A stretch of 4,324 nucleotides of DNA from positions 1 to 4,324 of IMG/VR virus record IMGVR_UViG_2671180781_000004; one strand, written 5' to 3'. Both the position numbers and the translations under genes were made by a program. The notes under the pieces are model-generated. The model was not told the DNA's origin and made no database searches. It worked only from the letters and a program-made list of their open reading frames with translations. Positions 465-4,324 of this stretch are shown here, in pieces. The stretch's first letter is position 1. Each line of letters starts with the position of its first letter. Origin of the DNA: a virus (Duplodnaviria; Heunggongvirae; Uroviricota; Caudoviricetes).

Positions 465-1208
465 ATGACACAGACTGAATCAGCGATTCTGGCACATGCC
501 CGGCGGTGTGCGCCTGCGGAGTCGTGCGGCTTCGTGATAAGCACGCCGGAGGGGGAGCGGTATATCCCTTGTGTGAATATTTCCGCAGAGCCGGAGGCGT
601 ATTTTCGTATCGCACCGGAAGACTGGCTGCGGGCAGAGATGCAGGGGGAGATTGTGGCACTGGTCCACAGTCATCCCGGTGGGCTGCCCTGGCTGAGCGA
701 GGCTGACCGGCGGCTGCAGATAAAAAGCGCACTGCCCTGGTGGCTGGTCTGCCGGGGTGACATTCACAAATTCCGCTGTGTGCCACATCTGACAGGACGG
801 CGCTTTGAGCACGGGGTGACGGACTGTTACACGCTGTTCCGGGATGCCTACCATCTGGCGGGAATTGATATGCCGGATTTTGAGCGTGAGGATGACTGGT
901 GGCGTAACGGTCAGAACCTTTACCTGGACAATATGGCGGTCACCGGCTTTTACCGGGTGCCCCTGTCCTCTGCACAGGCGGGCGATATCCTGCTGTGCTG
1001 CTTTGGCGCATCGGTGGCCAATCATGCCGCCATATACTGCGGCAACGGTGAGCTGCTTCACCATCTGCCTGAACAACTGAGTAAACGGGAGAGGTATTCC
1101 GAAAAATGGCAACGACGAACGCATTCAGCCTGGCGTCACCGCCACTGGCACGCATCTGCCTTCACGGGGATTTGCAACGATTTGGCCGCCGCCTCAGCCT
1201 GTATGTGA
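465..1208 (+). CDS. K: Tail tip assembly protein K (gpK-like), 247 aa, with an N-terminal JAB/MPN (JAMM) domain and a C-terminal NlpC/P60 domain
   Basis: ATG at 465, 10 nt after the L stop; TGA at 1206-1208. The protein starts MTQTESAILAHARRC..., as in lambda-type K proteins. JAMM motif H-S-H-x7-S-x2-D at residues 68-81 (nt 666-707). NlpC/P60-type Cys at residue 121 (TDCYT, nt 825-827) and His at 187 (NHAAIY, nt 1023-1025), followed by HH at 199-200. No obvious Shine-Dalgarno, so translation is probably coupled to L. The six-frame ORF starting at 204 is only the open frame extending back into L. Confidence 0.87.
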   Translation: MTQTESAILAHARRCAPAESCGFVISTPEGERYIPCVNISAEPEAYFRIAPEDWLRAEMQGEIVALVHSHPGGLPWLSEADRRLQIKSALPWWLVCRGDIHKFRCVPHLTGRRFEHGVTDCYTLFRDAYHLAGIDMPDFEREDDWWRNGQNLYLDNMAVTGFYRVPLSSAQAGDILLCCFGASVANHAAIYCGNGELLHHLPEQLSKRERYSEKWQRRTHSAWRHRHWHASAFTGICNDLAAASACM

Positions 1209-1786
1209 ACACGGCAGCGGAAGCCATTCGCGCCCTGTCGATGCAGATGCCGGGCTTTCGCCGTCAGATGAACGAAGGCTGGTACCAGATACGTATTCGC
1301 GGTGAGGACACGGCACCGGAGGCGGTGTACGCCCGTCTTCACGAACAGCTGGGTGAGGGGGCGGTCATCCATATTGTGCCGCGACTGGCCGGGGCCGGAA
1401 AGGGTGGACTGCAGATTGTGCTGGGGGCGGCAGCCATCGTGGGCTCTTTCTTCACTGCCGGGGCATCAATGGCGTTATGGGGTTCAGCCCTGGCAGCCGG
1501 TGGTTTTTCTGCCACCACGATGCTGTTTTCACTGGGGGCCAGCATGATACTGGGTGGTGTGGCTCAGATGCTTGCCCCGAAGGCTAAAGTACCGGAGTAC
1601 AAAAGCACGGATAACGGTAAACAGAACACGTACTTTTCCTCGCTGGATAACATGATTGCCCAGGGGAACCCGATGCCGGTGCCTTACGGTGAAATGCTGG
1701 TTGGCTCCCGGCGAATCTCTCAGGACATCAGTACCCGTGATGAAGGCGGTGGCGGGAAGGTCGTGGTTATCGGGCGGCAGAGGTAA
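1106..1786 (+). CDS. I: Tail tip assembly protein I (gpI-like), 226 aa; N-terminal ubiquitin-like (beta-grasp) region followed by a Gly/Ala-rich hydrophobic segment
   Basis: ATG at 1106, preceded by GGGAGAGG (1087-1094) as a ribosome-binding site; TAA at 1784-1786. The protein (MATTNAFSLASPPLARICLHGDLQRFGRRL...VIHIVPRLAGAGKGG...) is recognisable as lambda gpI. The start lies 103 nt inside the 3' end of K in a different frame, which is the same overlap geometry as lambda K/I. Confidence 0.9.
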   Translation: MATTNAFSLASPPLARICLHGDLQRFGRRLSLYVNTAAEAIRALSMQMPGFRRQMNEGWYQIRIRGEDTAPEAVYARLHEQLGEGAVIHIVPRLAGAGKGGLQIVLGAAAIVGSFFTAGASMALWGSALAAGGFSATTMLFSLGASMILGGVAQMLAPKAKVPEYKSTDNGKQNTYFSSLDNMIAQGNPMPVPYGEMLVGSRRISQDISTRDEGGGGKVVVIGRQR

Positions 1787-1826
1787 AAAGAATAAAAAAA
1801 TCCCGCAGTGTTGCGGAGCTGCGGGA
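1787..1826 (-). terminator. Putative rho-independent terminator for leftward (minus-strand) transcription, abutting the I stop codon
   Basis: Inverted repeat TCCCGCAG (1801-1808) / CTGCGGGA (1819-1826) with a 10-nt loop. On the minus strand the hairpin is followed by TTTTTTTATTCTTTT (complement of 1800-1787). On the + strand no T-tract follows it, so it is oriented for the minus strand only. Confidence 0.5.
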
Positions 1827-1956
1827 GAGTTACGAAGATTAACTATAGAGAATTATTCTTATGTCACGACAAAAAACATTAACGCAGAGAAATTATTAGT
1901 ACCACAGTCAGTTTGTGAAAATGTGAAGATATTCAGAATTTTTATTCAGTCATGAT
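1827..1956. other. AT-rich intergenic core between I and J with no credible protein-coding capacity; possible moron or small-RNA locus
   Basis: My hand count gives about 38 G+C in 130 nt (about 29%), against visibly GC-rich flanking tail genes. It is flanked by the two hairpin terminators. It contains short direct repeats: AGAGAATTATT / AGAGAAATTATT (1847-1857, 1886-1897), TGTGAA twice (1914-1919, 1922-1927) and TATTCAG twice (1930-1936, 1943-1949). Confidence 0.4.
1892..1919 (-). promoter_or_regulatory. Candidate sigma70 promoter on the minus strand: -35 TTCACA, 16-bp spacer, -10 AATAAT
   Basis: Read on the minus strand: TTCACA (complement of 1919-1914), a 16-nt spacer, then AATAAT (complement of 1897-1892). 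These match the consensus at 5/6 and 5/6. The predicted start would be near 1885, about 90-100 nt upstream of the minus-strand terminator. Found by eye in AT-rich DNA, so the false-positive risk is high. Confidence 0.3.
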
Positions 1957-1990
1957 ACAGGCATCCTCCGGGATGCCTGTTGTTTTTGTG
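1957..1990 (+). terminator. Putative rho-independent terminator on the + strand, ending 32 bp upstream of the J start codon
   Basis: Perfect 10-bp GC-rich stem ACAGGCATCC (1957-1966) / GGATGCCTGT (1971-1980) with tetraloop TCCG, followed directly by TTGTTTTTGTG (1980-1990). Confidence 0.65.
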
Positions 1991-2021
1991 CGTAACAGTT
2001 ATCACAGTAAAGGGTGAGACA

Positions 2022-4324
2022 ATGGGCAAAGGTGGCGGCAAGGCGCACACGCCGGTAGAGGCAAAGGACAATCTTAAGTCCACGCAGATGATGAGCGTGA
2101 TTGATGCCATTGGTGAAGGGCCGATTGAAGGTCCGGTGAAGGGGCTGCAGAGTATCCTGGTGAACAAAACCCCGCTGACGGACACGGACGGCAATCCTGT
2201 GATACATGGTGTGACAGCGGTCTGGCGCGCCGGGGAGCAGGAGCAGACACCACCTGAAGGCTTTGAGTCCTCCGGGGCGGAAACCGCACTGGGCGTGGAA
2301 GTGACGAAGGTAAAGCCGGTGACGCGCACCATTACGTCCGCGAACATTGACCGCCTGCGGGTCACCTTCGGGGTGCAGTCACTGTTGGAGACCACCTCAA
2401 AGGGCGACCGTAATCCCTCTTCTGTCCGACTGCTGATTCAGTTGCAGCGTAACGGTAACTGGGTGACGGAAAAGGATGTCACCATTAACGGCAAGACCAC
2501 CTCACAGTACCTGGCGTCGGTGATTCTGGAGAATCTGCCTGAGCGGCCCTTTAACATCCGGATGGTCCGGGAGACAGCGGACAACACCCCGGACCAGCTG
2601 CAGAATAAGACGCTCTGGTCGTCATACACCGAAATCATCGATGTGAAACAGTGCTACCCGAACACGGCGATTGTGGGGTTGCAGGTGGATGCGGAGCAGT
2701 TCGGCGGCCAGCAGATGACGGTGAACTACCATATCCGCGGTCGCATCATCCAGGTGCCGTCAAACTATGACCCGGAAAAACGCACGTACAGCGGCATCTG
2801 GGACGGCAGCCTGAAACCGGCATACAGCAACAACCCGGCCTGGTGCCTGTGGGACATGCTGACTCACCCGCGCTACGGCATGGGAAAACGTCTGGGGGCG
2901 GCAGACGTGGACAAATGGGCGCTGTATGCCATTGCGCAGTACTGCGACCAGACGGTCCCGGATGGTTTCGGGGGCACAGAGCCGCGGATGACCTTTAATG
3001 CGTACCTGTCACAACAGCGTAAGGCGTGGGACGTTCTCAGTGATTTCTGCTCGGCGATGCGCTGTATGCCGGTATGGAACGGCCAGACGCTGACGTTCGT
3101 TCAGGACCGCCCGTCGGATGTGGTGTGGCCGTACACCAACTGCGATGTGGTGGTGGATGATAACGGCGTGGGGTTTCGCTACAGCTTCAGCGCCCTGAAG
3201 GACCGCCACACGGCGGTGGAGGTGAATTACACCGACCCGCAGAACGGCTGGCAGACCTCCACGGAACTGGTGGAAGACCCGGAAGCCATACTGCGCTACG
3301 GGCGCAACCTGCTGAAGATGGATGCGTTCGGCTGCACCAGTCGCGGTCAGGCCCACCGTGCCGGGCTGTGGGTGATAAAGACCGGACTGCTGGAAACGCA
3401 GACGGTGGATTTCACGCTCGGGTCACAGGGGCTGCGTCACACACCCGGTGACATTATTGAAATCTGTGATAACGACTATGCCGGGACCCTGACCGGCGGA
3501 CGTATCCTGTCCATCGATGCCGCCAGCCGCACCCTGACACTGGACCGTGAGGTGACCCTGCCGGAGACAGGTGCCGCCACGGTGAACCTGATTAACGGCA
3601 GCGGTAAGCCGGTGAGCGTGGCCATCACTGCACACCCCGCGCCGGACCGGATACAGGTCAGCACCCTGCCTGATGGTGTGGAGACATACGGTGTATGGGG
3701 GCTCTCCCTGCCGTCACTGCGTCGTCGCCTGTTCCGCTGTGTCTCCATCCGGGAAAACACGGACGGCACCTTTGCCATCACGGCGGTGCAGCACGTACCG
3801 GAAAAAGAAGCCATCGTGGATAACGGGGCCAGCTTTGAGCCGCAGTCAGGCACCCTGAACAGCGTTATTCCACCGGCAGTGCAGCACCTGACGGTGGAGG
3901 TGAGCGCGGCTGACGGTCAGTATCTGGCACAGGCGAAATGGGACACGCCGCGGGTGGTGAAGGGTGTGCGCTTCAGTCTGCGCCTGACCAGTGGAAGCGG
4001 TGAAAACAGCCGCCTGGTGACCACCGCCATCACCGCAGACACGGCGCACCGTTTCAGTGGCCTGCCGCTCGGGGAATACACCCTGACAGTCAGGGCAATT
4101 AACAGTTATGGCCAGCAGGGCGAACCGGCCACCACCACCTTCCGGATTAACGCGCCAGCAAAACCCGCCACCATTGAACTGACGCCGGGGTATTTTCAGA
4201 TAACGGCGGTCCCGCGTCTTGCGGTGTATGACCCGACGGTACAGTTTGAGTTCTGGTTTTCGGAGACAAAAATCGCAGACACATCTCAGGTGGAAACCGC
4301 TGCCCGTTATCTGGGGACCGGCAG
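2022..4324 (+). CDS. J: Central tail fibre / host specificity protein J (gpJ-like), N-terminal ~767 codons; 3' end lies beyond the window
   Basis: ATG at 2022, preceded by AAGGGTGAG (2010-2018). The frame stays open to the window end. The translation ([54 protein letters not shown]...[45 protein letters not shown]...) is highly similar, by recall, to the lambda J N-terminal and central regions. Confidence 0.93.

Follow-up and report, generated by a model that had tools for sequence, protein, structure and literature searches.

The window, by which we mean the whole 4,324-nt stretch of DNA analyzed, is a portion of an E. coli lambdoid prophage tail module, and the features recognized within it are collected in Table 1. 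The tail assembly gene I and the tip attachment gene J are separated by a spacer of 235 nt, and all of the elements of a candidate small RNA (sRNA) gene lie inside it. In O55:H7 RM12579, where this allele of the candidate lies at NC_017656 2654197–2654310, the I–J spacer region is 99.6% identical to window positions 1760–2040 and the RefSeq tail-gene annotation is concordant with ours, with nothing annotated within the I–J spacer. A preliminary description of this DNA had placed the unit between the late tail genes and antisense to them, and this is where it is found, with I at 1205–1786, J from 2022, and the unit on the minus strand.

Table 1. Features of the window; coordinates are counted from its first nucleotide.
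Feature	Coordinates	Strand	Basis and remarks
Tail gene L, 3′ part			Pfam Phage_tail_L
Tail gene K			Pfam; JAB and NlpC/P60 domains
Tail assembly protein I	1205..1786	+	Pfam Lambda_tail_I; RefSeq RM12579 agrees; stop codon 1784–1786
U tract, U7 A UU C UUU	1787..1800	-	Sequence reading; ends 1 nt from the gene I stop codon
Predicted unprocessed sRNA, G1885 through U7, 92 nt	1794..1885	-	Covariance-model match; 5′ GCGUUA conserved across alleles
Equivalent of the published 83-nt PasB, 77 nt here	1794..1870	-	Table S6 coordinates (PMC8550237) carried through the spacer alignment
Intrinsic terminator hairpin, CCCGCAG/CUGCGGG stem with U-A closing pair, 10-nt loop	1801..1826	-	Scan and folding
Single-stranded motif UUAAUCUUC	1834..1842	-	AUCUU invariant and flanks nearly so in 22 alleles; unpaired in consensus fold
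-10 hexamer AATAAT	1892..1897	-	Promoter scan; aligned position conserved in 26/26 promoter-bearing alleles
-35 hexamer TTCACA	1914..1919	-	Promoter scan; same hexamer and 16-nt spacing in E2348/69 PasB
Conserved A/T-rich block upstream of the -35	1920..1955	-	Among the most conserved spacer blocks in 47 unique loci
Intrinsic-terminator-like hairpin, 10-bp stem, U-rich tail	1957..1990	+	Scan; lies between the sRNA promoter and the J start
J, tip attachment/host specificity protein, 5′ part, running past the window end	2022..4324	+	Pfam FNIII-A_GpJ, Phage-tail_3, Ig_J; RefSeq agrees

The near-consensus sigma-70 promoter previously proposed at 1919–1892 on the minus strand is recovered by a promoter scan as TTCACA-16-AATAAT, matching 10 of 12 consensus positions, and on both strands of the 4.3-kb window the sole other promoter-like site is an overlapping 9/12 variant. 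These two promoter-like sites compare with 1.8 expected from shuffles, which is no enrichment, and the seven terminator-like sites with 3.8 expected, a mild excess. Because the counts are near the shuffle expectation, the pairing of a promoter with a terminator is only modestly unlikely by chance; the chance of some such pair with the same spacing in a window of this kind is about 0.04, a rough estimate drawn from the site rates. The real support for the putative sRNA unit is its homologues, and what decides the matter is conservation. Upstream of the -35 hexamer, the A/T-rich block could serve as an UP element or as a site for an activator. It includes a CRP-like TGTGA-N6-TCAGA at 1922–1937 on the minus strand with one mismatch to the consensus; at least one match of this kind occurs in 30 of 200 shuffles, and the site is centered at about -44.5, which is not the canonical class II position. 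Activation by CRP in class II fashion was rejected on account of this location and the insignificance of the site on its own in shuffles, and is kept merely as an idea.

At the distal end of the unit, the terminator scan reports a minus-strand terminator-like site at 1817–1802 followed by ATTTTTTTAT, and folding of the minus-strand RNA lengthens the GC-rich stem to eight pairs (UCCCGCAG/CUGCGGGA, 1826–1801) preceding the U7 run, in agreement with the hairpin (1826–1801) and U-tract (1800–1787) that had been claimed. Among 22 alleles of the RNA the terminator stem is invariant, and the loop varies in both length and sequence. In structure prediction and covariance analysis on homologous spacers, suggested earlier as a check, the consensus fold contains the terminator hairpin, and there is no covariation in it because the stem never varies, such that its conservation takes the form of invariance. 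The consensus fold of the alleles contains this hairpin alone and leaves the rest single-stranded, with neither secondary structure beyond the terminator nor covariation. A terminator hairpin on an otherwise single-stranded RNA is typical of Hfq sRNAs, and the module of terminator and U-tract in Hfq-dependent sRNAs generally is the binding site for the Hfq proximal face; the window allele retains its terminator and U7 module. The conserved single-stranded UUAAUCUUC is a candidate for a shared seed or an Hfq-contact element.

A start at G1885, 7 nt past the -10 hexamer, is predicted, so the transcript would be 86–92 nt long depending on the number of U residues retained, close to the original estimate of about 95 nt. 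The longest minus-strand frame inside the transcript is an AUG followed by five codons by sequence reading, and the ORF listing has no minus-strand ORF of at least 30 aa within 1787–1945, so the earlier remark that no ORF exceeds a few codons holds. Three coding readings of the region were set aside. On the minus strand there is this six-codon AUG frame alone, and it lacks conservation. A 99-aa plus-strand ORF (1656–1955) is a mechanical overlap of the 3′ end of I with the spacer, and a plus-strand frame of 19–21 codons over the 1957–1980 hairpin has no Shine-Dalgarno sequence and varies in a manner that keeps the pairing and not the amino acids.

We surveyed related loci using protein I as the handle, and 125 loci were fetched. 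A long I–J spacer is present in every one of the 85 loci whose I and J ends are complete and whose I is at least 91% identical, with lengths of 234–260 nt and other classes of 295, about 340, 425, and about 850 nt; spacers at the lambda-type I loci (60–77% identity) are 59–71 nt, usually 60, with the exception of one Citrobacter locus at 714 nt. The sRNA unit occurs at the same place in all 85 of the related I–J spacers, with its promoter lost in the 16 that carry sodC. With duplicates removed there are 49 spacers, and the full-length RNA is represented by 26 distinct alleles. Conserved across alleles are the A/T-rich block that precedes the -35 hexamer, along with the -10, the 5′ GCGUUA with its U-run, UUAAUCUUC, the terminator stem, and the U tract; the hypervariable middle of the RNA and the terminator loop are not. 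The -10 of each of the 26 promoter-bearing alleles is TATAAT, AATAAT, GATAAT, or TATCAT, and the -35 is a weak hexamer in the Sakai and L064-type alleles. Mean pairwise identity is 73% in the spacer, compared to 92% in the last 300 nt of I and 94% in the first 300 nt of J.

Covariance model R1, trained on 12 alleles of which none was of the window type, matches the window from 1885 to 1794 on the minus strand with 73.7 bits (E = 1e-12) over model positions 1–97 of 97. It has no other significant match in the window, and in those lambda-type and more distant loci that were searched it found no related RNA. The window thus shares with the family the I–J position and antisense strand, homology over the full length, an aligned sigma-70 promoter, and a terminator with a U tract of at least six. 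By a blastn search with the RNA region, 1,429 of the 5,426 complete E. coli genomes contain the family, at 3,618 places and with up to eight copies per genome; none of 30 sampled matches has an annotated feature at the RNA itself, and only 25 records have a copy that reaches 95% identity to the window allele. A cmscan of the whole window against Rfam 15 (E <= 10) gives no match in 1787–2021, with the STnc100 and Esr41 models among those that fail to match, and the I–J locus of Sakai Sp15 (L003) similarly gives nothing, while AgvB, AsxR, and STnc100 all match at Sakai control loci. There is no Rfam model for this family.

Two sets of known sRNAs belong to it. RIL-seq in EPEC O127:H6 E2348/69 revealed five sRNAs termed pathogenicity-associated (Pearl Mizrahi et al. 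2021, PMC8550237), among them PasB, an 83-nt RNA of prophage PP6 (NC_011601.1, 1466343 to 1466261, minus strand) located between E2348C_1436 and E2348C_1437 (PMC8550237 Table S6), which are the tail assembly protein I and tip attachment protein J genes in RefSeq. PasB was verified by northern blotting with the probe AATCCCGCAGTGATCGCGGAGCT (PMC8550237), and this probe departs from window positions 1799–1820 by one inserted base and one substitution. In EPEC RNA-seq the baseMean of pasB is 482 in activating and 1,082 in non-activating conditions, versus 5 and 15 for the flanking I and J genes, and its log2 fold change in delta-hfq is -6.8 and -2.4; this abundance relative to I and J, together with the fall in delta-hfq, identifies pasB as a transcript that depends on Hfq and is autonomous within a late operon that is silent. 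PasB takes part in 37 RIL-seq interactions, ranking 15th, and is almost always the second RNA in the chimeras (PMC8550237); its partners in activating conditions are bfpB, bfpI, ftsZ, galE, ler, perB, and rplX.

The window RNA has the same I–J position and antisense strand as PasB, and also has in common with it the TTCACA-16-(T/A)ATAAT promoter, the 5′ GCGUUA and U-run, (U/G)AUCUUC, the CCCGCAG/CUGCGGG terminator, and U7. However, the two are only 67% identical over the RNA, the -10 is TATAAT in E2348/69 and AATAAT in the window, and the middle of PasB reads GCCCGAGUAACAAAAACAACUCCUUCACA where the window has GUCGUGACAUAAGAAUAAUUCUCUAUAG. Carried into the window through the alignment, the published 3′ end of PasB falls at 1794 and its coverage-derived 5′ end at 1870, about 15 nt downstream of the promoter-predicted start, and the 5′ end is uncertain by about that amount. 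This gap may reflect processing after the U-run or an imprecise end of RNA-seq coverage, and with the 5′ leader cleaved off, the mature RNA could span 1794–1870.

PasB has been reported as the least diverse of the Pas sRNAs (Zhu, Shabalina & Storz 2026, bioRxiv 10.64898/2026.05.13.724894), in a search of bacterial genomes that used blastn at word size 28 and query coverage above 75% with the 83-nt E2348/69 query, with settings relaxed solely outside Escherichia and Shigella. By these criteria the window does not contain a PasB variant, as megablast at word size 28 finds no match in it; at word size 11 the PasB query aligns merely in its 33-nt terminator part. Applied to our fetched loci, the 83-nt query at word size 28 and coverage above 75% retrieves 16 and misses both the window and the Sakai alleles. 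The low reported diversity is therefore a consequence of the word-size-28 search and not a property of the locus. No part of the tail region varies more than the RNA middle.

The second set comprises EcOnc22 (Sp15, Stx1), EcOnc23 (Sp14), and EcOnc24 (Sp11), which are homologous Hfq-CRAC peaks in EHEC O157:H7 Sakai (Tree et al. 2014, PMC4104026, Table S2; see also Sy & Tree 2021, PMC7873438). EcOnc22 gives a northern band of about 85 nt that is destabilized in delta-hfq (Tree et al. 2014, PMC4104026); the literature listing gives no targets for it. As the raw EcOnc22 coordinates seem to fall near J, the offset from the older Sakai record to the newer one was calibrated on both sides. Rfam matches to AsxR and AgvB1 give a shift of +135 to +146 at 1.27 and 1.94 Mb, with which the published location of AsxR 282 bp 3′ of stx2AB (Tree et al. 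2014, PMC4104026) agrees, and StxS_S, a 74-nt RNA ending at tR′, 258 nt from PR′, was located in the new record with a shift of +121 to +130 at 2.926 Mb. A placement of the EcOnc22 peak on a J-proximal hairpin, as the raw coordinates would have it, is ruled out by the shift of +128 from NC_002695.1 to NC_002695.2; with this shift the Hfq peak occupies 2902842–2902902, inside the predicted Sp15 sRNA at about 2902838–2902927. In the current Sakai record EcOnc22, 23, and 24 are all in I–J spacers and antisense to the tail genes.

In the promoter, 5′ end, UUAAUCUUC, terminator, and U tract, the Sakai copies can be aligned with both the window and PasB. Their position, strand, AATAAT -10, UUAAUCUUC, terminator, and U7 are common to the window RNA, and EcOnc22, which binds Hfq and depends upon it, is of similar size (91 nt predicted, about 85 nt on the northern). 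As the northern-verified Sakai copies also have AATAAT, the -10 of the window is compatible with expression. The window RNA is 72% identical to EcOnc22; the Sakai copies as a group differ from it in their weak -35, TTCCGG, and carry AACUCCAUAAC in place of the window's AAUUCUCUAUA. Table S6 of PMC8550237 contains no EHEC homologue of PasB, and the equivalence of PasB and EcOnc22–24 is not stated in the literature examined.

We compared PasB to six of its RIL-seq partner fragments with a 12-mer complementarity scan, using random fragments of the same loci as background; this took over from unconstrained RNAduplex, whose full-length duplexes were meaningless. The most complementary stretch is PasB nt 31–48 (AACAACUCCUUCACAUUG), which is anti-Shine-Dalgarno-like, with z = -4.2 and none of 60 background sets reaching it. 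This is suggestive, the test being a small one with six targets and an ad hoc background. The window lacks CUCCUUCACA and AACUCCUUCACA, the PasB stretch that best complements the RIL-seq partners, and at the corresponding position has AAUAAUUCUCUAUAGUUA (AAUUCUCUAUAG), where most alleles have AACUCC. The 12-mer scan of the window allele against the EPEC target fragments gives no PasB-like complementarity signal, and UUAAUCUUC is the only part of the seed comparison that the window and PasB have in common, which speaks against the same seed and target specificity. With a central region unlike that of the studied alleles, the window allele probably has a different set of targets.

We consider it most likely that the feature in the window is an allele of the PasB/EcOnc22–24 family, and a moron-carried, lysogen-expressed, Hfq-dependent sRNA acting in trans by base-pairing. 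The sRNA gene would be a moron, an extra gene inserted among the phage late genes, equipped with a separate promoter and terminator and orientated opposite to the late operon, seated in the I–J spacer of one lineage of E. coli lambdoid prophages. With the late operon silent in a lysogen, the sigma-70 RNA polymerase of the host would start at about G1885 and stop at the CCCGCAG/CUGCGGG hairpin and U7, giving an RNA of about 90 nt, possibly trimmed to about 77 nt. Largely unstructured upstream of its terminator, this RNA would owe its stability to Hfq bound at the terminator and U tail, and would base-pair in trans with host and virulence mRNAs. By analogy to the E2348/69 and Sakai alleles, that of the window would give a discrete RNA of about 80–90 nt in lysogens and depend on Hfq. 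Its expression, Hfq binding, trans action, and seed are inferred; a PasB-like mode of action with different targets is expected. The suggestion made at the outset of a non-coding unit, plausibly a lysogen-expressed sRNA, gains support by analogy from PasB and EcOnc22–24, which were shown experimentally to be such RNAs and lie at the same position. The kind of element is thus already known and experimentally validated, and the window holds a diverged and unannotated allele of it.

Its organization resembles that of the lambdoid morons of Juhala et al. 2000, in the form in which PMC4104026 cites them: an autonomous unit of promoter, gene, and terminator between late genes that is transcribed in the lysogen. 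Prophage sodC is an example at the same I–J site, and lambda-type relatives have a spacer there of only 60 nt; the cargo in the window differs in being a non-coding RNA of about 90 nt and not a protein gene. Another multicopy prophage sRNA, HnrS (EcOnc10/11/12; Poudyal et al. 2026, PMC13502914), is 66 nt long and a repressor of hha. It is also Hfq-associated, and the lambdoid prophages of EHEC and EPEC that encode it do so in their late region, one copy to a prophage. Identity with HnrS was rejected on its EcOnc numbers, its locus (Sp9, Sp10, and Sp12, and about 5 kb from AgvB1 in Sp10), and its 66-nt size alone.

Several other roles for the RNA can be weighed against action in trans. A cis-antisense regulator of the tail operon, which we regard as unlikely, would pair with the I–J junction of the late polycistronic mRNA, leading to RNase III cleavage, to decoupled or damped J expression, or to the mopping up of leaky late transcripts in lysogens, and the plus-strand terminator at 1957–1990 would then define an I 3′UTR containing anti-sRNA sequence. 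The RNA is perfectly complementary to this junction, its antisense orientation is strictly conserved, its 3′ end is no more than 8 nt from the I stop codon, and, reading in the sense direction, a conserved plus-strand terminator-like hairpin follows closely upon the sRNA gene. However, there is no overlap with the J ribosome-binding site, the 5′ end of the RNA being about 137 nt upstream of the J start, and the late mRNA is nearly absent in lysogens (baseMean 5–15). The recorded PasB RIL-seq partners are trans mRNAs, with no chimeras to E2348C_1436 or E2348C_1437 among those listed; moreover, lambda-type phages cope with a 60-nt I–J spacer and no such RNA, and a purely cis-acting antisense RNA has no need of a hypervariable middle.

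It is very unlikely that the RNA is a sponge, with a variable region that mimics an mRNA target site and titrates a core-genome sRNA, in the manner of AgvB and AsxR (Rfam RF02702 and RF02703; 51–60 nt), which are sponges of GcvB and FnrS. Like those anti-sRNAs it is prophage-borne and multicopy with a Hfq-binding, lysogen-expressed family and a moron site, and the architecture, in which a variable functional region precedes a terminator module conserved at the 3′ end, is the same; one sRNA-related chimera, between the pasA-flanking intergenic region and pasB, is also listed in the RIL-seq data. Nonetheless, the listed PasB partners are almost all CDS or 5′UTR fragments. AgvB and AsxR are shorter and are located downstream of PR′, near the stx and lysis genes, and the window has no match to either Rfam model at E <= 10, with the Sakai controls matched; identity with them was rejected on the PR′ moron site and this absence of sequence or structure matches. 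That the unit is a non-functional by-product or remnant is highly doubtful. Here the terminator would insulate I from antisense transcription of spacer morons and the promoter would be incidental, or the allele would be dead, and such a reading could draw on the 16 of 85 loci in which sodC replaces the sRNA promoter and the RNA body and terminator remain downstream of sodC, on the poor conservation of the RNA middle, and on the absence of a published phenotype for any family member. Against it, the -10, the 5′ end, and UUAAUCUUC are conserved across 26 alleles amid spacer sequence at 58–73% identity, PasB is abundant, Hfq-dependent, and 15th by RIL-seq interactions, and every conserved element is intact in the window allele.

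PasB in EPEC and EcOnc22–24 in EHEC are alleles of a single locus-defined family, which is present in about one quarter of complete E. coli genomes, often in multiple copies, unannotated and absent from Rfam. The targets of the window allele possibly include virulence regulators, as for PasB (ler, perB, bfp). We speculate, tentatively and with the odds rather against it, that the I–J spacer RNA is a seed-swapping cassette in which a rapidly exchanged central seed is set in a conserved scaffold, consisting of the upstream A/T-rich CRP-like block, the -10, the 5′ GCGUUA and U-run, UUAAUCUUC, and the terminator, with the window allele representing an uncharacterized specificity class. If so, each prophage, of which a genome may have up to eight, would plug different host or virulence mRNAs into the same expression program, and the family, with PasB, EcOnc22–24, and at least four further allele groups, would be much larger and more diverse than the published survey suggests.

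Lastly, the plus-strand hairpin ahead of J has a folding z of -4.3. A plus-strand sRNA ending at this terminator (1957–1990) was considered and rejected, as there is no acceptable plus-strand promoter by eye or by scan. In 10 variants 98% of the cells in the stem are paired, with one compensatory exchange between U-A and C-G pairs, a pattern that has weak support in shuffles (59/500). This conserved plus-strand terminator and the antisense sRNA could together gate the expression of J.

The spacer between tail genes I and J (window 1787-2021) is far more diverged between prophages than the ends adjoining it, with a mean identity of 73% and a minimum of 58%, compared with 92% for I and 94% for J. 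Terminator loops and RNA bodies of the predicted minus-strand small RNA occur in differing combinations among the alleles, and this suggests recombination inside the gene, which is only about 90 nt long. The ORF listing includes a 99-aa, TTG-started plus-strand ORF (1656-1955) that runs out of frame over the end of I and through the spacer, although it is not credible as a gene because indels between alleles disrupt its frame.

Upstream of the sRNA -35 lies a segment (1920-1955) that is among the best-conserved stretches of the entire spacer, and within it is a CRP-like site centred at about -44.5; at least one such match is also present in 30 of 200 shuffles. PasB, the EPEC member of this sRNA family, is more abundant in LB than in glucose-rich DMEM. 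This would be consistent with activation by CRP, and an UP element is equally compatible. Between the sRNA promoter and the start of J, and thus within the late operon, is a strong plus-strand hairpin resembling an intrinsic terminator, which might halt non-antiterminated transcription ahead of J. It is kept across spacers of 234-260 nt: 98% of cells are paired, a single compensatory U-A/C-G pair is present, and shuffle support is weak (59/500).

Features of the I-J spacers (window coordinates unless a locus is given)
Feature	Coordinates	Strand or context	Details
Intrinsic-terminator-like hairpin	1957-1990	+	10-bp stem, UGUUUUUGUG tail, fold z = -4.3
CRP-like site TGTGA-N6-TCAGA	1922-1937	within 1920-1955 block	1 mismatch to CRP core consensus
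sodC-bearing I-J spacer	L059 2181-3032	sodC on sRNA strand	Pfam Sod_Cu

Several related loci have longer spacers. Those of about 850 nt carry sodC (Cu/Zn superoxide dismutase; E = 4e-32) with its own terminator, and are found in L059 and 15 other loci, including L051, L057, L060, L070, L072, L073, L075, L082, L087, L088, L090, L099, L100 and L113. The inserted segment takes the exact place of the sRNA promoter, as far as roughly +1, and the sRNA body and terminator are retained downstream, where they may yield an RNA by read-through from sodC or else be a dead copy. The 425-nt spacer of L122 contains a tandem second unit, in which the conserved upstream block is repeated ahead of a body and terminator of different sequence (CUCCCG...CGGGAGCGUUUUUU). 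In the 343-nt spacers (L077, L084, L086, L118, L119 and L134) the usual J-proximal part is replaced by an additional sRNA-strand hairpin with a U-rich tail (AAACCCCGGUAUC...GAUACCGGGGUUUUCUUUC). Both this hairpin and the second unit of L122 could be further small RNAs.

For the Sakai loci (L003-L009, in NC_002695.2), the coordinates of Tree et al. 2014 (PMC4104026) are those of an older Sakai record. Relative to NC_002695.2 the shift is about +135 to +146 in the 1.27-1.94 Mb range and about +128 near 2.93 Mb, and mapping the EcOnc features onto the current record requires correction for it.

Genome contig matches also include near-identical lambda-type I-J loci with a 60-nt spacer (L013-L026, L028, L037, L038, L040, L041 and L048), on low-coverage contigs of unrelated taxa including Neobacillus, Pseudomonas, Chromatium, Bradyrhizobium and Enterococcus. 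Their I genes are 67-78% (mostly 67%) identical to that of the window, and their presence looks like contamination of the assemblies with phage lambda DNA. L011 ('Streptomyces flavalbus') and L036 ('Parendozoicomonas') similarly contain E. coli-type prophage sequence including the sRNA.
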